From a virus, in the IMG/VR virus record IMGVR_UViG_3300003177_000005, positions 32,001 through 96,000 of that record: a stretch of DNA of 64,000 nucleotides. One strand, written 5' to 3'. A program made the translations under genes and the position numbers. The notes beneath the pieces are model-generated. The model saw only the letters and a list, made by a program, of their open reading frames with translations, searched no databases and was not told the DNA's origin. This document shows positions 3,798-55,865 of this stretch, one piece after another. Position 1 is the stretch's first letter; each line of letters opens with the position of its first letter.

Positions 3798-3950
3798 ATA
3801 AACCCTTTCCAGTTGTATCAATCAAGATGTATTTTTTCCATTAAATGAAGTCTAAACACTCTAATAACAAACAGAATTAAAAAAATATATACTAAAGGGT
3901 TTAGAATTTAATAAACTATAAAGTTTAGGCTTCATCATTTTTTTCTCCTG

Positions 3951-4003
3951 ATGAGTACTTCCCAGATACTACCGTATTTTGGTAGTATCTGGGAAGTACT
4001 CAT
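3951..4003. repeat. Perfect inverted repeat, 23-bp arms, 7-nt loop
   Basis: atgagtacttcccagatactacc-gtatttt-ggtagtatctgggaagtactcat, between divergent genes. Confidence 0.9.
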
Positions 4004-4029
4004 AACTATTTTAAAAATATATAATTTAA

Positions 4030-4467
4030 ATGTCAAATATAAACAAGGAGTTTTTTATGTGGTTATTTTTTTATGGTATAGTTATACTCGCTATAACTTT
4101 TTTATTAGGTGTTTTAAAACTTATTCCCGATAATGTTTTATTATTAATACTTGGTGGTGTTTTAAGTGTAGATTTATTTTTGTATCTATTTAAATTTAAA
4201 CATAAGATAGATATAAGGGTTTTCAATAATAAGAATTCTAAACTTATTAATAGTCCTGGATGGATAAAACATAATGCAATATTTACTTTAATAATTCTAG
4301 TTATTTCCGCTGGTTGTTATGACCTATTTATTTATAATAAAATTAATATTATACATTACTTTATTCTTTTATCTATAATAAGTATTTACTTTAATATTTA
4401 TTTAATAAACCAAAACAGGTTTGCAGCACTAAAACAGTTAAAGGATTTAACTAATGACAAAAAGTGA
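4030..4467 (+). CDS. Small multi-pass membrane protein
   Basis: About four hydrophobic segments; true start possibly ATG 4057 after AAGGAG. Confidence 0.7.
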   Translation: MSNINKEFFMWLFFYGIVILAITFLLGVLKLIPDNVLLLILGGVLSVDLFLYLFKFKHKIDIRVFNNKNSKLINSPGWIKHNAIFTLIILVISAGCYDLFIYNKINIIHYFILLSIISIYFNIYLINQNRFAALKQLKDLTNDKK

Positions 4468-12765: not shown

Positions 12766-12902
12766 CATATATTATTAATATAGTGAATGACATCACTATA
12801 GTTGTCTTACTCTTAAGTAAGATTAGTTATACTGTGAAGTATAACACCCTGTCTTATGGTGGATTCCATACACCTAAGACGTAACCTTATAAGGAGGGAA
12901 TT
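12766..12902 (+). promoter_or_regulatory. Promoter plus four-hairpin structured 5' leader, copy 1
   Basis: CATATATTATTAA, then P1 tatagtga/tcactata, P2 tcttac/gtaaga, P3 gttatact-GTGA-agtataac, P4 gtctta..ggtg/cacc..taagac, then AAGGAG. Confidence 0.8.
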
Positions 12903-13121
12903 ATGGAATTAACTAAAATTGAGCTACATAAGCTCATAAAGGCTGGGGAACACCTAGCCATAAACCTATTAATAAATAGATACGGCTATGATGCTTTCGT
13001 AGCCAGATACGGTAGGGAGATTGCGGGTCACCGCATCTCCCTTCGTGATGTGGGAGCTGAAGTTTACGAAGCTCACCACATCACTAAAGAGGTGGTTATT
13101 GAGCCTGTAGAGGCTCAATAA
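12903..13121 (+). CDS. Small hypothetical protein in leader cassette 1
   Basis: 72 aa, strong RBS, visibly more GC-rich than flanks. Confidence 0.75.
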   Translation: MELTKIELHKLIKAGEHLAINLLINRYGYDAFVARYGREIAGHRISLRDVGAEVYEAHHITKEVVIEPVEAQ

Positions 13122-13158
13122 CTATCCTCGCCGTATCTTATTAACTATTTATTTTTTT

Positions 13159-15297
13159 TTATTCCCTACCATACATTTCTTTTATGGATAGTTTGTTCTG
13201 TCTAAATATACCTAATGTCTCTAAAATCATATAGTAACCTGCCATAGTAGTATCTAGTAGTTTACTATAATCAACAAAATCTTTTAACTCATCTGGTATA
13301 CCTATACTTTCGGCATATGTCATCGGTACTCTAAATTGTTTTAATTCCTTTTTATTATTAGCTCTAAGGAAATTATCAAGTCTATCTAGAAATATACTAT
13401 TACCTTTACCTTCTTCTTTAAATGTTTTTATAGTACTACTACTAAACTTCACAGTTGGTATTGTAACTACTTTATATTCTGGTTCAGGGGCATTACCGTA
13501 TTTTTTACTAAAAACACCATTCCATAATAGATGTTGAAAATATGTTGAATTTTTGACACCCTCACTATAAGCTTTAGCAGGTTTTATAGAACTTACTCTT
13601 AAAAAGTTATAATCAGCTTTTTGTACACGCTCTATTAGATATTCTTCCATATCTATAACTTTATTAATAACCTTATTTATATCTAAACTACTCTCTTGTT
13701 CTATAGATGTCAAGATATATTTCATAAGGTCTTTTTGTCCTTCTTTAATCTTTTCTGGGAATGCTCCACCCAATAAAGTAGGACCTTTAATCTCAGGTTT
13801 ATAAGAATCAAAAACAAACCCTTCCTTAATGTTTACCTTAGCGTAATAGTTTTTAGAAGCATATATAGCCATTAAAGGCCAGTAATACTCATTTTTCATC
13901 TTAAGTAAATCTCTTTTATCTGGTTGGACATTCATATTGGTAGCTAATGTTTTTAGGTTATGATCAATAGCTTGCGTTACAAATGTCATAATAATAGCCG
14001 AAACAGCTGTTGCATCTTTGGTAAACTTGATATCACCAAAATACCATTGTACCCAATCTTGATAAGTTCCACAAGTTGAATCAGTATCAGATAGTACTAT
14101 GGCATCTCTTACCATAAGTTTAGTGTCAGCAACATTAGGTGGTAAGATAACTGTTCTAAAGAATGTATCTATTAATAATTCTTGTTCTTCAATTTTCTTA
14201 TAGATATGTAAAGCTGTTGTAGCCAATTTATCTAACAATACCATATCTTCTATAGCATCAAATTTAACATCTTTACCTTTTACATCTTCAGATACAATAT
14301 GGAATAGTAAGTTAATGATAAATTCAGGCATATCCTTTAATAGCTTAACTTTATCTTCTCTACTTCCTTCTATACCAGAAACTGGTTTTATCATATCAGT
14401 TACTAGGGTCTTTAAAAAGGTTGGGTTAAATTCTCTAATATTATAAAGGTTATTAACATAAGCAATCGCTGCTCTTTCTACTGGGGTTAATTTCTTTATA
14501 TACTTAAGTATCTCCCAATCTTTTTCTCTATTTTGCCAATATTGATGAGCAGGTTCTAATAGTGATTTTGCTAATTCTTGATAAGTTGGTATTCTAAGAA
14601 CCAATTTATCTAATGTATATTTAACTTTATCCATATCTATAAATGTTATTATAGAAGTTATATAATCCATAACTAACTCTGGAGTTCTGAATATATAATT
14701 AGATGCCACCATAACTTCTGTTAATGCATTACCTATACCTGCAACACAACGAGTAACTGATGTTAATCCATAGTGAGCTGATGCGTTATAAAGAACATTA
14801 AATACTGATGCGTATGCTCCTGATAATGAGTTGTTTAAAATCTTCTTACTATTTTGATAACCATTATAAAAGTCATATAGTTCCATTTTCTTTTCAGCAT
14901 AAAACTTCTTAGCCTTTTGTTTCGCATCGTTTCTTTCAGCAACGTTTTTAAATGTATATGTAGCGTCTATACCAGCTTCTTTATTAGACGCTATATAAAC
15001 AGTCATAGATGGTGCTAAGGCATTACCCTCTTCAGACGCCTTTCTTAAATAACCTAAAAAATTCCCTCTTTTCTTTACTTTATCTTTTACTTCATTTCTC
15101 TCATAATATTCTATCTCTGGGTCTCTAAAACCGTGATCTTTTAATGCTTTTCTAATAATATATTTAGCTTCTTCACCTACTATTTCATAGCGAACTTCTA
15201 AAAACTTTTTATACATCTTAATCATATTACCTAATAGATCCAGATGTCGCTTATATTCATTCGATGGTAGGATAAAAGGGTTATTAAATTTAGACAT
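13159..15297 (-). CDS. Family B DNA polymerase, phiKZ gp50-like polymerase-domain subunit
   Basis: QNSKKILNNSLSGAY (motif B), LSDTDST (motif C), KNYY, LKMKNE; 712 aa without an evident exonuclease domain. Confidence 0.88.
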   Translation of the reverse strand: MSKFNNPFILPSNEYKRHLDLLGNMIKMYKKFLEVRYEIVGEEAKYIIRKALKDHGFRDPEIEYYERNEVKDKVKKRGNFLGYLRKASEEGNALAPSMTVYIASNKEAGIDATYTFKNVAERNDAKQKAKKFYAEKKMELYDFYNGYQNSKKILNNSLSGAYASVFNVLYNASAHYGLTSVTRCVAGIGNALTEVMVASNYIFRTPELVMDYITSIITFIDMDKVKYTLDKLVLRIPTYQELAKSLLEPAHQYWQNREKDWEILKYIKKLTPVERAAIAYVNNLYNIREFNPTFLKTLVTDMIKPVSGIEGSREDKVKLLKDMPEFIINLLFHIVSEDVKGKDVKFDAIEDMVLLDKLATTALHIYKKIEEQELLIDTFFRTVILPPNVADTKLMVRDAIVLSDTDSTCGTYQDWVQWYFGDIKFTKDATAVSAIIMTFVTQAIDHNLKTLATNMNVQPDKRDLLKMKNEYYWPLMAIYASKNYYAKVNIKEGFVFDSYKPEIKGPTLLGGAFPEKIKEGQKDLMKYILTSIEQESSLDINKVINKVIDMEEYLIERVQKADYNFLRVSSIKPAKAYSEGVKNSTYFQHLLWNGVFSKKYGNAPEPEYKVVTIPTVKFSSSTIKTFKEEGKGNSIFLDRLDNFLRANNKKELKQFRVPMTYAESIGIPDELKDFVDYSKLLDTTMAGYYMILETLGIFRQNKLSIKEMYGRE

Positions 15298-29591: not shown

Positions 29592-29601
29592 GGGGGGGGG
29601 G
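29592..29601 (+). repeat. G10 homopolymer in RBS position
   Basis: A9-G10-ttacta-ATG. Confidence 0.85.
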
Positions 29602-38249: not shown

Positions 38250-38806
38250 ATGTGGTGGAAGAGGGTTAAATATCTTGATGAACATAAAAAGGATAATAAA
38301 TTTAAAAACCTATCTTGGTATAAGGATGACATATATCTGTCGCCTTATGTACCATATAGGGAAGTAAAGGAAATCAAGTGGCTACTAATATTAAATCATA
38401 ACGATCAAATATTAGATACCCTTAATAAAGGGTATGAGTTGTTTAAAAGAGAGAGAGAAGTGGTGGTGACCACTCTCTCTTTTCTAAAATTGAAGCATTT
38501 CTAGCTCTAGATGACCAGAGGTTAGAAGTTGCTGATTTTATGGAAAAGGCTGGTTTCAAAGAACATGGGACCACCTTCCATAAGGGGTGGATAAGAGGTG
38601 TAAACTCTAAAACTGTCGGTGGTAACGACGGTTATAGAGGTTACTATAAACAAGAGGAGATTTTATGGGTGTCTCCTCTTGACGCATTCAAAACTTTATA
38701 CCTCTCAGGGTATAAAGAATACGAAGTGATGTTGGAAAAAGGTGAGGAGTGGTATGACTCCTTTGTATCCTCTGTAACAATAGTGGATGTTGTTTATGAG
38801 GCGTAA
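38250..38806 (+). pseudogene. Cassette 3 gene split at an (AG)5 repeat
   Basis: Deleting one AG at 38448-38457 gives FKRERSGGDHSLFSKIEAFLALDDQRLEVADF-MEKAG joining both ORFs. Confidence 0.65.
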
Positions 38807-39776: not shown

Positions 39777-40286
39777 ATGATTCATTTAGATTTTTTCCAG
39801 GAAATGTTTACTCCTGGTAAAGTAACTGCAATTTTAGACAATGAGGATGGTTCTCAAACAGCCTCATTAGTTCTAGATACAGGAGAGTTAGTAGAAGCTC
39901 CTGTGATTGATGGTCTTAGTATAGGTGTTACTTATCTAGTAAAAACTGAAGATATAGTAACTGAAAGTGGTAAAGGTGTTGTCGAGAATCTTTACAAAGA
40001 AGATGCAAAAGAGATATATATTCTTAGCATCGACCTTAATCACAACACTAAGATAACAGATTATCTTAAGGTAGAAAAAGTTGGTCTACCTGAAGATGAA
40101 AATACAGAGTATATAGAACTAAACGTAGATGTTTTTGATAGAGAGATTCATACCCCTATAAATAAACTTCTACAAAAGCATCTTATTTATTCAGTATCTG
40201 TCCAAACAGATACAAAAGGAGATAATGATTACAATAAAGATTTGCTTGATAAAGCAGTAAAAGAGCAAATAAAGTTAGCAGCATAG
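39777..40286 (+). CDS. Hypothetical acidic protein
   Basis: Start moved to ATG 39777 behind AAGGA. Confidence 0.72.
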   Translation: MIHLDFFQEMFTPGKVTAILDNEDGSQTASLVLDTGELVEAPVIDGLSIGVTYLVKTEDIVTESGKGVVENLYKEDAKEIYILSIDLNHNTKITDYLKVEKVGLPEDENTEYIELNVDVFDREIHTPINKLLQKHLIYSVSVQTDTKGDNDYNKDLLDKAVKEQIKLAA

Positions 40287-40341
40287 TTTTTACTATGTTG
40301 TTAACATATTAATCATTTTATTTATATTATTTTTTTCTATT

Positions 40342-40745
40342 TAGTGATGGGCATCGTTTCCAGTCAGAATGATCAAGTAGGTATAATTTAGTTATATGCG
40401 AACCACATTCCCATACAGGAAAACTGCCCTAGTTTGTCTCGTAAGTTCTAGTAGTATATACAATATCTTTGCCTTTATGGTGTAAGTGCGATAATATATA
40501 TGGGGGATGTTGGTAACGCAACATCTTGGTTCTAGAGGCAACTTACCTCGATAGTGTCCTAAGCTGAGCATCCTATAGGTCTTCGGATCTATAGGGTGTG
40601 AGGTGGATGGGTCAGAGGAAAGTTGTAGACGAATGCACCAGTAACTGCTGGTGAAATCCAATCAGAAGTCGTGGGGGAAGTGGGGGTACGATCAAAGTGG
40701 CCCAAAGGGCATCCGCTTAGACAGCAAGATATCGCTAGATATCAA
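40342..40745 (+). ncRNA. Candidate large structured non-coding RNA
   Basis: GC-rich island with no RBS-supported ORF; hairpins catcctataggtc-TTCG-gatctatagggtg, gatgttg/caacatc, caccagt/gctggtg, gccc/gggc; long-range aggtggatg/catccgctt. Confidence 0.65.
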
Positions 40746-41145
40746 TCTATGTTATACTTATATATAAGACATATATAATACTTAAACTAAAGAGATCTAA
40801 TAATTTATATATAAACAAATAATAAACATATAAGATCTTAATAATATATAAAAGATAAATATAATAAAGGTCTATCAGTAATAATCCTAAAGTTATGTCA
40901 TAGACAGATATAGAGATCTTAATAATAAATAATAAATATAAAGATCTAAATAATTATAACATATATACATAAATAATAAAATATATAATAAACTAATATA
41001 TAGATAAGAAAATATCTTAATAATATAAAAGAGATCTATAATCATAGTTAATAAGACATAAAGGTAGTAAATTTAGTTAATACTACTATAAGATATACTA
41101 TGACATAGATAAGTAAAAGAAAGTTAAAATAGAGTATATTTTATC
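40745..41145. repeat. Very AT-rich non-coding tract with repeated AGATCT(T)AATAAT units
   Basis: GATC at 40794, 40834, 40915, 40943, 41033; A-skewed low complexity. Confidence 0.75.
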
Positions 41146-41180
41146 TATATATTATTTAGTTAGTAATGTCATATTACTAA
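41146..41180 (+). promoter_or_regulatory. Promoter-like box plus hairpin
   Basis: tatatattatttagt-tagtaat-gtcat-attacta. Confidence 0.6.
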
Positions 41181-41208
41181 AGTTAAAATTTAAATAAGGA
41201 GTTAAGTT

Positions 41209-52898: not shown

Positions 52899-55865
52899 AT
52901 GATTATCAATGTTACAAAAATAGATGGACGAAAAGAACCACTAAATATAGAGAAGATAAGAAAATATACTAAAGGGTATGTACCAGGTAATGATGAAAAT
53001 ATGGTAGCTGAATTAGAATCTGATGTTCAATTACATTTTAAAGATGGGATGAGCACAGCTGATATACATGATGCCCTTATACGAGAGTGTACACTTAAAA
53101 CTGATGTTGGTAAATTAGAGTGGGATAAATTTGCTAAAAACTTATTTGTTTCCAATTTTAAATATAGACTAAAAAAAGATAAAAATATATTTGATCTTAA
53201 ATCTTATATAAGAGAAAATAAAGATAGACTTAATGATCGTATACTTTCATATACTGAAGACGAACTAAATCTTTTAAAAGAAGAGATTAATGAGGATAAT
53301 GACTTTAAAGAATTTACTTATAATGGTATCGTTACATTACTTAATTCTTGGGCAAATAAAAAAGGCGATAGTATTATAGAAACTCCTCAATATCTTTATA
53401 TGGGTTTAGCTATGTTTTTGGCTAGTAATGAAGAAAGAGATAGTTGGGTTTATTGGTCTAAGAAGTTCTATTATGTTTTAACTAATCATTATGCATTAAT
53501 GGGTACACCAACAATGAGTAAATCTAGATCAAAAAGACCACAGTTATCTTCTTGTTATGTTGGTGCAACTCCAGATAGTATCGAAGGTATAATGGATGCT
53601 AATAAGACTATCTCTATACTATCAAAGTTTGGTGGTGGTATCGGTTGGGATTTTTCTCCAATACGAAGTGTCGCATCTGAGATAGATGGTTATAAAGGTG
53701 TAGCTGGTGGTTCAATTCCATTCCTAAAAATAACTAATGATGTAACATTAGCTGTAGACCAATTAGGTTGTGTGGTTAAGGATAGTTATGTAAAAGTTAT
53801 AGATGATATTAATGAAATTAATGAAAGAATTATTCCTATTTATAAACTAAAAAAGGGTGATTTGATTAAATCTTACAATCATACTTTAAATAAAGTTGAA
53901 TATCAAACAGTATTAGAAACATATGACTTAACAGTAGAGATTAAGGACCAGGTTTTAATAGTATTCGAAAATGGCGTAAAATATTTAACATCTGCTTGGC
54001 ACCCTGTTCCAAAATTGATAGATGGTGAATATAAATATGTTCGAGCTGATAGTATAAAAGAAAATGATATAACTGTTGGTGATAATGGTGAAGAGTTAAA
54101 AATTGTTAGTGTTAAACACGGTGAAGAAACCGGTAGTAAAACAAATGTATTTTTCGATATTACAGTTAAGGATAATAATAACTATTTCTGCGCATCGTTT
54201 AATTCGGATAATAATATTTTCGGACTTATTCACAATACTAGACCAGGGGCCTTAGCACCATATCAAAATACTTGTTCATTAGAAATTATTGATTTCCTAG
54301 ATTTAAGAAAAAATTCTGGTGAAGAGCGTAGAAGAGCACACGATTTATTTTTAGCAGTTATTTTAGAAGATAGATTTATGGAAGCTGTGGAAAATGATGA
54401 AGAGTGGTTGTTAGTAGACCAATATGAAGTTCCTGAATTAATACACGCACAATCTGGTGAAGTGTTTAAAAGTAAATATGAAGAAACTTTACAAAGATTT
54501 AGAAACAATGAGTTAAAATTAGGTAAATTAGTTAGTGCTAAAGATTTATGGAAAAAGATAATAAGAAGTTATTATGAAACTGGTTATCCATTCTTATTCT
54601 TTAAGACAACAGCTAATGAAAAACATATGGGAACTGGAACTATCCGTAGTAGTAACCTTTGCACAGAGATTTTTCAAGCTACAGCTCCTGCCGAATATGA
54701 TATGGTTGTTTATATGGAGACAGGAAATAAGATAGAATCTATCTATATACCTAGAACATCATTAATCAAAATAGGTGTAAGAAATAAAGATGGTAAGATT
54801 AAATATAGATCAGGAACAATTAAGGAGATAACAGCTGCAACAGACTCAGTATATGTTACACTTAAAAATCCAAATGATAAAGAAGATGAATGGACAGGTC
54901 AAGAGTTTATTTTAGAGAATATTCTAAATGCAGAGTTAGTTAAAGATAAAGTTTCCGAAGAGTTAGCAGTTTGTAACTTATCATCTATTAACTTAGCTAA
55001 GATAAATACAAAAGAAGCTTTTGAAGAAATTATACCTATTGTTGTTCGTATGTTAGATAATGTTATTGATCTGAACTTCTATCCAGTATTAGCAGCGGCT
55101 CTAACTAATAAACGAACTAGAGCTATTGGCTTGGGTGTAGCTGGTGAAAATGAACTAATAGCAGGTAAGGGTATACATTATGGTTCAGAAGAGCATAAAG
55201 AGTTCGCTAATGAGCTTTATGAGATGTTTGCATATTACACAATAAAAGCTAGTGTTGACTTAGCTAAAGAAAAAGGTAAGGCACCTGCTTTTGATGATTC
55301 TAAATGGGCTAACTTTGATCATAAAGAGTATAGTACATTAGCATCAAAGATTCCTGAAGATGAATTAGATATACCTAAACCAAAATACTTTATGGACTGG
55401 GTAGGTTTAGAAAAAGATATTAGAGAGAATGGTATGAGAAATATTTATCTTATGGCTATTGCTCCTACTAGTACTATTGCTAGTGTACTTGGAACAACAA
55501 GCAGTATCTCACCAATAATTAATAAGTTAACATTTGAATCTAATTCTAAAGATCATCTATTGGCTAAGTACCCATCTAACTTATCAGCTGAAACTTGGAA
55601 TTTCTATACAAATGGATTTAAGATAGATCAAATCGAAGCTATAAAGGTTAACGCTATTCGTCAGCGATGGATTGACCAAGGTATATCTTATAATGTTAGA
55701 GTATTACAAGGAGATGTAACTGGAACAGACTTACATAATATCTATATGACAGCTTGGAAATATGGTATGAAATCAACATACTATTTAAATAGTATACCAA
55801 AAGAAAAAGAAGAGGAGAAACAAAAATATAAAGAAGATCAAATAACTTGTGTAAACTGTGAATAA
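52899..55865 (+). CDS. nrdA: Ribonucleotide reductase class Ia alpha subunit with ATP cone and intein
   Basis: VTKIDGRKEP, QLSSCY, GGGIG, SSNLCTEI, AVCNLSS, AIAPTS, IDQGIS, KSTYY, C-terminal CVNCE. Confidence 0.95.
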   Translation: MIINVTKIDGRKEPLNIEKIRKYTKGYVPGNDENMVAELESDVQLHFKDGMSTADIHDALIRECTLKTDVGKLEWDKFAKNLFVSNFKYRLKKDKNIFDLKSYIRENKDRLNDRILSYTEDELNLLKEEINEDNDFKEFTYNGIVTLLNSWANKKGDSIIETPQYLYMGLAMFLASNEERDSWVYWSKKFYYVLTNHYALMGTPTMSKSRSKRPQLSSCYVGATPDSIEGIMDANKTISILSKFGGGIGWDFSPIRSVASEIDGYKGVAGGSIPFLKITNDVTLAVDQLGCVVKDSYVKVIDDINEINERIIPIYKLKKGDLIKSYNHTLNKVEYQTVLETYDLTVEIKDQVLIVFENGVKYLTSAWHPVPKLIDGEYKYVRADSIKENDITVGDNGEELKIVSVKHGEETGSKTNVFFDITVKDNNNYFCASFNSDNNIFGLIHNTRPGALAPYQNTCSLEIIDFLDLRKNSGEERRRAHDLFLAVILEDRFMEAVENDEEWLLVDQYEVPELIHAQSGEVFKSKYEETLQRFRNNELKLGKLVSAKDLWKKIIRSYYETGYPFLFFKTTANEKHMGTGTIRSSNLCTEIFQATAPAEYDMVVYMETGNKIESIYIPRTSLIKIGVRNKDGKIKYRSGTIKEITAATDSVYVTLKNPNDKEDEWTGQEFILENILNAELVKDKVSEELAVCNLSSINLAKINTKEAFEEIIPIVVRMLDNVIDLNFYPVLAAALTNKRTRAIGLGVAGENELIAGKGIHYGSEEHKEFANELYEMFAYYTIKASVDLAKEKGKAPAFDDSKWANFDHKEYSTLASKIPEDELDIPKPKYFMDWVGLEKDIRENGMRNIYLMAIAPTSTIASVLGTTSSISPIINKLTFESNSKDHLLAKYPSNLSAETWNFYTNGFKIDQIEAIKVNAIRQRWIDQGISYNVRVLQGDVTGTDLHNIYMTAWKYGMKSTYYLNSIPKEKEEEKQKYKEDQITCVNCE
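53769..54236 (+). mobile_element. Mini-intein (156 aa) in NrdA
   Basis: DQLG|CVVKDSYV...TSAWHP (block B)...FFDITVKDNNNY...LIHN|TRPGA; no endonuclease domain. Confidence 0.92.

Follow-up and report, generated by a model that had tools for sequence, protein, structure and literature searches.

A putative structured RNA bordering the most AT-rich DNA of a phiKZ-like jumbo phage record, and its likely relatives in uncultured phages

Introduction

Among described phage RNAs, ROOL (∼580 nt) and GOLLD (∼800 nt) are comparable to the element reported here in being large, GC-enriched, intergenic and structured. A second point of comparison is given by replication origins that are primed by a transcript and carry G-rich hybrid segments or AT-rich unwinding tracts, as in ColE1, T4, T7 and mitochondrial DNA. 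In ColE1/pMB1, RNA II is a folded transcript of several hundred nucleotides that runs towards the origin and forms a persistent G-rich hybrid, from which RNase H cuts the primer. Transcription from the mitochondrial light-strand promoter runs into two adjacent G-runs (CSB II), whereas T4 oriF and oriG and the primary origins of T7 combine a promoter with a downstream AT-rich unwinding element; in either case the transcript remains hybridised and primes DNA synthesis.

Nucleus-forming jumbo phages are reported to lack both an identified primase and a mapped replication origin. In the sections available from two preprints of October 2026 (PMC13648687, PMC13648698), chimalliviruses are described as having no identified primase or sliding clamp and as carrying an RNase H-clamp subunit on the polymerase, and one of the two raises the possibility that replication starts from RNA-DNA hybrids. 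Within those sections the word 'origin' occurs 0 and 3 times, respectively, and no passage refers to a replication origin.

Here we describe a GC-rich island in the window, by which we mean the whole stretch of 64,000 nucleotides that was analysed (bases 32001–96000 of a 119.5-kb IMG/VR record). The island very probably serves as template for a structured plus-strand RNA. It has the general character of the ROOL and GOLLD RNAs, both of which, however, are much larger. Like ColE1 RNA II, the predicted RNA is folded and ends in G-tracts at an AT-rich edge; in contrast to RNA II, to which it has no sequence or Rfam similarity, no antisense partner of the RNA I type is seen, and the phage has its own RNA polymerase. 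The arrangement of two G-runs, G5-N4-G5, followed by AT-rich DNA recalls CSB II and the T4 and T7 origins, but those origins are not known to include a large folded RNA domain that is conserved, and the G-run in the family to which we compare the element varies from G3 to G6.

Results

The phage and its neighbourhood

The record is 46% complete and has a GC content of 28.1%. Its genes include those for a family-B DNA polymerase of the divergent type (PF20286, E 3e-161), part of a split RNA polymerase β′ subunit, a nuclease resembling RecJ and an NrdA that carries a HINT-like insert, and this combination points to a phiKZ-like (chimallivirus-type) jumbo phage. The polymerase is ∼31% identical to those of cultured phages. 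Its nearest relative in a set of 5.8 billion proteins is 73% identical and lies on a 3.7-kb contig, the next being at most 38% identical; the polymerase alone has no close relative in the viral contigs. Neither PF00075 (RNase H) nor PF01807 (DnaG zinc ribbon) was found in the record, which, given its incompleteness, is uninformative.

The proteins encoded around the element, of 188, 417 and 123 aa, have no relatives. Because these neighbours are ORFans, similarity and synteny searches failed and no syntenic loci could be collected. There is no turn of the GC skew at the element. No RNA run is among the sequencing runs listed as carrying the element; the only ones are four DNA runs from two samples of one study, one of which is possibly the source of the record, and its sequence is identical in all four, leaving no variation to test.

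A GC-rich island with a strand-specific fold

A preliminary description of this DNA had noted a sharp GC island, and the composition bears this out. GC content is 0.41–0.49 across 40400–40800, against 0.13–0.30 in the flanks, and the island contains the highest-GC 150-nt interval of the 119.5-kb record (0.52, more than 5 s.d. above the record mean of 0.281, s.d. 0.045). The surrounding intergenic gap, 40287–41208, holds no plus-strand ORF of at least 40 aa, and the stop-to-stop frames in all six reading frames of the gap are short, none being protein-like. An 89-aa minus-strand ORF over the element, which had been named as a possible objection to an RNA, has no match in a Pfam search and no counterpart of at least 60 aa over the element in five related loci.

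The predicted minimum free energy (MFE) fold of 40342–40745 has an energy of −126.4 kcal/mol on the plus strand (z −3.19; 1 of 100 shuffles equally good) and −92.2 kcal/mol on the minus strand (z −1.54; 4 of 100 shuffles equally good). In raw terms the plus-strand energy of the island is the third lowest in the record for 200-nt intervals. After correction for GC content, by regression over all 200-nt intervals of the record, it falls outside the 12 most over-stable intervals, so that the main signal is GC enrichment, together with the strand asymmetry, rather than excess folding. The parts of the element and the adjoining tract are as follows.

40345–40430, plus strand: 5′ domain, a predicted branched hairpin of ∼85 nt (MFE fold of 40342–40745), specific to the window
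40487–40493, plus strand: 5′ box GUGCGAU, corresponding to the opening 7 nt of the family box (K)UGCGAUCACU, without the CAC half
40502–40527, plus strand: hairpin of 9 bp with a GUAACG loop, opening with a G5 run, from predicted folds
40531–40537, plus strand: UCUAGAG motif, identical in the G023 element
40538–40626, plus strand: hairpin A, long and imperfect, with 36 predicted pairs, 9 of them G-U, and a 14-bp UUCG tip at 40569–40600
40636–40653, plus strand: hairpin B, in which a stem of 6 bp (CACCAG/CUGGUG) closes a loop of 6 nt; aligned by the covariance model to model hairpin 3
40673–40686, plus strand: G5-AAGU-G5 tract, with equivalent tracts in relatives
40687–40743, plus strand: 3′ extension, specific to the window, ending in a 6-bp hairpin GAUAUC/GAUAUC (40728–40743)
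40745–41208, no strand: AT-rich tract without an ORF, GC 0.16, in which AGATCT occurs five times alongside further short repeats

G-U pairs, noticed earlier in stems of the plus strand, occur in the predicted hairpin A, whose folding energy is −45.6 kcal/mol on the plus strand as against −22.5 kcal/mol for the reverse complement. The C(UUCG)G-capped stem at its tip, earlier given as 13 bp, has 14 pairs, of which 3 are G-U. Two competing long-range pairings had also been proposed for the 3′ end. Both exist in the sequence: 40601–40609 can pair with 40710–40718 (9 bp, 2 G-U) and 40555–40564 with 40715–40723 (9 bp, one bulge). The MFE fold, however, uses neither, and the relatives described below have no alignable 3′ extension that carries them.

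The plus strand of the 119.5-kb record contains eight runs of five or more G, three of them inside the element. One G10 aside, G5-AAGU-G5 is the only pair of runs of four or more G within 10 nt of each other in the record, and it lies 60 nt upstream of the lowest-GC DNA of the record, the 300-nt intervals with GC 0.14–0.16 at 40751–41200 that adjoin the island. The palindromic hexamer AGATCT is under-represented in the window (9 sites against 23.8 expected), and five of the nine sites fall within 245 bp of the AT-rich tract. A terminator scan finds no terminator at the end of the element, and none of the U-run type follows the last hairpin. The TATATTAT box that had been placed upstream of the island occurs at chance frequency: 29 matches are found where 24.4 are expected, and 16 of 100 shuffles reach 29. 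Sigma-70-like sites likewise occur at chance level (12 against 13.5 expected).

Comparison with known RNA families

Rfam 15 yields no match anywhere in the window at gathering score. With the threshold relaxed to E ≤ 10, a search of 40200–40900 returns only a 13-bit junk match and no large RNA family, a search of 40530–40750 returns nothing, and nine related loci are equally without a match. The proposal that the island belongs with ROOL and GOLLD, as a compact or novel representative of that class, therefore finds no support: neither ROOL nor GOLLD is matched in the window at gathering score or locally at E ≤ 10, and the island is only ∼400 nt long. The rest of that earlier proposal, a structured RNA on the plus strand of a phage of the nucleus-forming type, is supported by the phiKZ-like DNA and RNA polymerase genes, by the strand-specific fold, by the scarcity of ORFs and by the likeness to a covarying family.

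The element contains GAGGAAAGU, GGUGAAA and CCGCUUA, which we take to be RNase P-like motifs. No RNase P model matches at E ≤ 10, which leaves the idea of an RNase P RNA unsupported as well, and the three motifs, searched for as a gapped pattern, occur in no other viral contig. The earlier statement that the element is neither a tRNA nor a tmRNA agrees with the ARAGORN results (0 genes in the window and in the whole record, which thus has no tRNA gene) and with the empty Rfam searches.

A family of related elements

Sixty loci of related polymerases were gathered from the viral contigs with an alignment query, and 50 records were scanned; loci L015, L031, L034, L035, L041, L042, L056, L057, L060 and L064 were left out. 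A scan of the 50 records for G5-N(1-8)-G5 matched eight. Five sites, in G023, G018, G005 (two copies, G005a and G005b) and G020, share one layout and lie in GC-rich, ORF-free islands of ∼250–350 nt; those in G046, G034, G027 and G015 look different.

RNAalifold applied to MAFFT alignments of these elements gave wrong helices, with the stems out of register, and for this reason we used a model seeded from a single sequence, followed by re-alignment. Model R1 was built from G023 alone and R2 from G018, G005a and G005b; these and a later model, R3, were all built without the window sequence, and they were run on sets drawn from the viral contigs, not from metagenome_contigs, genome_contigs or the cultured phages. 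R1 finds G018 at E 4e-9 and both G005 copies at E ∼1e-3, the latter in a small search space; its matches in G003 are a coding repeat. R2 recovers G023 at E 1.4e-15 to 2e-15 and, over the 50 records, adds G002 (6.3e-7) and G024 (7.2e-5), so that 5 of the 50 records match. A pattern for the conserved box, run over all viral contigs, gives 32 loci, five of them already known; R3 adds one of the other 27, L144 (E 2.7e-9), and misses G020. In all, eight related elements in seven contigs have covariance model support (G018, G023, G005a, G005b, G002, G024 and L144 among them), and one more, G020, is recognised by eye only.

Sequence searches were less productive. In a collection of 50,697 phage records, blastn gave no match to the window element or to those of G018 and G005b, and no member of the family matches a cultured phage in this way. 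Against the 50 related records the window element had only short chance matches; a repeated 14-mer proved to be coding sequence, from ankyrin-like repeats. An exact 17-mer pattern had three matches, all coding and by chance, and a pattern of the G-tract together with its 5′ context was matched by G018, G023 and four unrelated loci only. A literature search found no description of such an element. The family, absent from Rfam 15 and delineated here, is so far seen in a handful of uncultured AT-rich jumbo phages.

From 5′ to 3′ its members comprise a (K)UGCGAUCAC-type box, CUAG, a small hairpin, a long hairpin of 19 bp with a 7-bp closing helix, a short hairpin, and G-tracts, after which there is usually an abrupt step to very AT-rich, repeat-bearing DNA. 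The box, (K)UGCGAUCACU, is present in all eight elements other than that of the window and is followed in these members by a (U)CUAG/UUAG motif; a hairpin loop with the sequence GAACGWAGUGA is conserved in several. A short hairpin directly precedes the G-tract in all members.

The helices are supported by covariation. In a six-sequence alignment, A8, all 32 pairs change on both sides, including the six of helix 3, the short hairpin, and 93% of cells can pair, as against 34–44% when the partners are slid; none of 500 shuffles reaches the observed values. The alignment had itself been adjusted to the structure of the model, a procedure that tends to raise the number of pairs. Its 192 cells comprise 140 Watson-Crick pairs, 34 G-U, 2 A-C, 11 other combinations and 5 gaps. 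The excess of G-U over A-C indicates selection on the G-rich single strand, as expected of an RNA and not of a duplex site.

The genomic settings of the elements vary. Those of the window, G023 and G018 follow a gene on the same strand, and in G023 and G018 a hairpin-plus-T-run terminator stands between that gene and the element; no gene of matching orientation lies upstream of G005a, G005b, G002 or G020. The two G005 copies lie antisense between minus-strand genes and would thus need a promoter of their own. A 10-nt motif, ATATC[TA]A[AT]AT, is found 31–54 nt upstream of the box in six of eight members, and this motif and the antisense placement together suggest that the element has its own promoter. 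The elements G005b and G002 are head to head with the start of the DNA polymerase gene; across the members, position relative to that gene is not constant. The DNA that follows G005a and G005b is only moderately AT-rich. No conserved partner protein is encoded next to the element.

Relationship of the window element to the family

The window element has its principal parts in the family order and on the same, G-rich strand, hairpin A (40538–40626) being followed by hairpin B (40636–40653) and by the G5-N4-G5 tract (40673–40686). It has GUGCGAU, UCUAGAG and GGGAAGUGGG in common with the family, together with a short CCAG/CUGG hairpin and an AT-rich repeat tract immediately downstream. The G-tract reads G5AAGUG5 in the window, G5AAACG5 in G023 and GGGAAGUGGG in L144. 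A stretch GUGUC..U.AGCU resembles G005b, with which the 3′ strand of hairpin A also aligns in sequence, against the 3′ strand of the G005b hairpin A. Hairpin B is the counterpart of the short hairpin of the other members.

Local alignments scored against dinucleotide shuffles give z values of 4.65 for G005b (1 of 300 shuffles as high), 3.44 for G005a (0 of 300) and 2.73 for G018 (1 of 300), compared with 3.1–4.8 between accepted members; alignments to G023, G020, G024 and G002 are not significant. The profile models score the window element poorly. R1 gives 12.8 bits (E 0.57 in 91 kb), R2 gives 16.6 bits (E 0.032 in 70 kb, fourth in rank behind a generic hairpin) and R3 gives 13.3 bits (E 0.11–0.19), tied with a chance match and with hairpin A out of register. 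The element is nevertheless the only R3 match in its own record under default filters, not a significant one, and the best nhmmer match there, yet at E 0.81.

These scores are understandable, since hairpin A of the window carries an extra 32-nt UUCG-capped tip and its linkers are longer, although to account for the scores is no proof of membership. Overall the window element differs from the rest of the family in being ∼60 nt longer, and in its 14-bp UUCG tip, its 85-nt 5′ domain and its other 3′ end. The 5′ domain has no counterpart in the relatives, where the terminator of the upstream gene or AT-rich DNA is found in its place. GUGCGAU is followed by AAU in place of CAC, and UCUAGAG comes 38 nt later, past an extra hairpin. 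The upstream 10-nt motif is lacking (only ATATCU is present), as is the second G-tract, GGGUGGGnGUGGGAG in the relatives, where the window has its 3′ extension.

On balance the order of parts, the shared motifs and the G005 alignments argue that the window element is probably homologous to the family. For the fuller statement, that the island encodes, or serves in cis as template for, a structured non-coding plus-strand RNA of about 260–400 nt that is a divergent member of a small family in related phages, we regard the case for and against as evenly balanced.

Discussion

Tentatively, we favour the view that the element yields an RNA acting in cis at an origin of replication, as a primer or in an R-loop. 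No other reading is as specific while accommodating every feature; it stays tentative in that only the sequence setting is observed and each later step is inferred. The phage RNA polymerase would transcribe the element towards the AT-rich tract, and the folded 5′ part would keep the G-rich 3′ part free. The latter would then form a persistent RNA-DNA hybrid, perhaps with a G-quadruplex, at the edge of an easily melted tract, and RNase H would trim this hybrid into a primer for the primase-less polymerase. The element would in this way act as the RNA arm of the origin, in the manner of ColE1 RNA II, the T4 oriF/oriG transcripts and the mitochondrial CSB II primer. Several observations are consistent with an origin: the G-tracts lie 5′ of the lowest-GC DNA of the record, AGATCT sites cluster there, two of the related elements (G005b and G002) are found beside the polymerase gene, and one genome has two copies; the reading would also fit the two preprints, which describe a polymerase that carries RNase H and no identified primase. 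Other observations count against it: the GC skew does not turn at the element, the distance to the polymerase gene differs between members, the DNA beyond G005a and G005b is only moderately AT-rich, and RNase H (PF00075) was not found in this 46%-complete record. Extended to the relatives, the proposal would make these elements dedicated origin RNAs of chimallivirus-like phages, with G-tracts that lock an R-loop or hybrid G-quadruplex beside an AT-rich unwinding tract bearing iterons, and with the polymerase-bound RNase H producing the leading-strand primer; in this wider form it is slightly more tentative.

Much of the same evidence could be accommodated by a stable non-coding RNA that acts in trans as a scaffold, sponge or regulator, perhaps kept in the phage nucleus or exported from it, and that has nothing to do with replication, the AT-rich tract being then the promoter region of the following genes. 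The covarying structure with its G-U bias is what such an RNA would show, a promoter of its own is suggested by the upstream motif together with the antisense position of the G005 copies, and the conserved loop GAACGWAGUGA resembles a candidate binding site; moreover, a review (PMC13282480) reports that PhiKZ expresses non-coding RNAs. This explanation nevertheless leaves the G-tracts at the 3′ edge, and the extreme AT tract with its repeats in most members, unexplained, and no conserved partner protein accompanies the element; we consider it doubtful, if still a serious candidate. The edge itself could instead be the functional feature, with hairpins and G-tracts that halt the phage's RNA polymerase or shield the upstream transcript at its 3′ end, and an AT tract that restarts transcription. 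A GC-rich structure followed by AT/U-rich sequence would suit such a role, as would the same-strand gene upstream in the window, G023 and G018, and G-quadruplex-dependent termination is known in mitochondria. Yet G023 and G018 already have a terminator before the element, four other members (G005a, G005b, G002 and G020) have no same-strand gene to terminate, the end of the window element shows no terminator-like site, and a conserved multi-helix structure of 150–400 nt exceeds what a terminator needs, all of which makes a boundary element unlikely.

Two further explanations dispense with a functional RNA. The GC island and the AGATCT array might be bound as duplex DNA, serving in packaging (pac), in the manner of a centromere, or as an origin that binds protein and involves no RNA; arrays of GATC-bearing hexamers mark the P1 pac site, the array in the adjacent tract is palindromic, and the loop of the window hairpin B is the reverse complement of that in G023, which a duplex site working in either orientation would lead one to expect. 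Selection at the level of the single strand is, however, indicated by the 34 G-U against 2 A-C combinations and by the twofold difference in folding energy between the strands, and the stems change in sequence yet stay paired, so that a purely DNA-level site seems to us improbable. That the island has no function, being a decayed foreign gene of higher GC content or a chance stretch whose likeness to the family is coincidental, would agree with the failure of the models to reach significance in the window, with the unexceptional GC-corrected fold and with a neighbourhood full of ORFans. Against this, six frames contain no protein-like ORF, the 89-aa frame being without a Pfam match; five shared features keep their order, and both G005a and G005b align significantly with the element; two samples carry one and the same sequence; and its position beside the most AT-rich tract matches that of the relatives. 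We regard absence of function as very improbable.

If correct, the origin-primer reading would account for replication in these phages in the absence of a primase, and would provide the first mapped origins for the group. A covarying RNA with G-tracts at the most AT-rich DNA offers a concrete molecule, and a place, on which the idea can be tested, and even if the origin reading is wrong there remains a structured RNA family that is absent from Rfam 15.

A minor point concerns the predicted hairpin at 40502–40527, between the 5′ box and UCUAGAG, which may be either an insertion specific to the window or the displaced counterpart of the small hairpin that follows CUAG in the family.

The AT-rich tract and a high-scoring hairpin

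Features of the window referred to below:
3930–4065, intergenic hairpin of ~23 bp, near-perfect
38250–38806, segment containing a pair of small ORFs, 84 and 88 aa long
40745–41208, AT-rich tract with no ORF, GC 16%
52899–55865, ribonucleotide reductase large subunit gene, with a HINT-like (intein-type) insert at residues 314–446

The AT-rich tract adjoining the GC-rich element (40342–40745) carries five AGATCT sites together with further short direct repeats. AGATCT is scarcer than expected across the window (9 observed against 23.8 expected), and five of the nine sites fall within 40793–41037. All three exact matches to AGATCTWAATAAT are located in the same tract.

Against R2 and R3, the covariance models of the RNA family in related phiKZ-like jumbo phages, the intergenic hairpin at 3930–4065 scores as high as the element or higher. 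We attribute this high score to its being a long hairpin, and to nothing more.

Loci in other viral records

A GAACGWAGUGA loop is conserved in several family members, on a hairpin 3' of the first G-tract of the family layout, and may be a protein-binding loop. The hairpin is carried by loci L087, L097, L089, L144 and L090 (phage record G005 twice, G018, L144 and G015), of which G015 has no model match.

Two further loci, L118 and L119, contain G5-N-G5 followed by a C5 hairpin and have a GGATTCGAAATCC stretch in common; the 3' end of L119 is tRNA-like. Neither is related to the RNA family of models R1–R3. Hairpins pairing a G-run with a C-run also occur inside long non-coding regions 5' of PhuZ-like tubulin genes at L083 (G046) and L085 (G034), and the family element of G023 likewise lies 5' of a PhuZ-like gene.

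Other features of the record

On both strands, the 200-nt windows whose folds are most over-stable in the entire record lie at 12780–13160 (GC-corrected z of −5.9 and −5.2). They overlap a 72-codon ORF that is GC-enriched and has a ribosome-binding site, immediately 3' of the divergent family-B DNA polymerase gene. A G10 run occupies 29592–29601, the sole site in the record, besides the element, with runs of four or more G so near each other.

A second GC bump at 38250–38806, milder than that of the element (GC 0.39–0.41), is coding; the first of its ORFs, of 84 aa, weakly matches an HNH-endonuclease PHROG (E 0.0036). The match of the ribonucleotide reductase insert to Pfam PT-HINT, at E 0.004, falls short of the PT-HINT cut-off.
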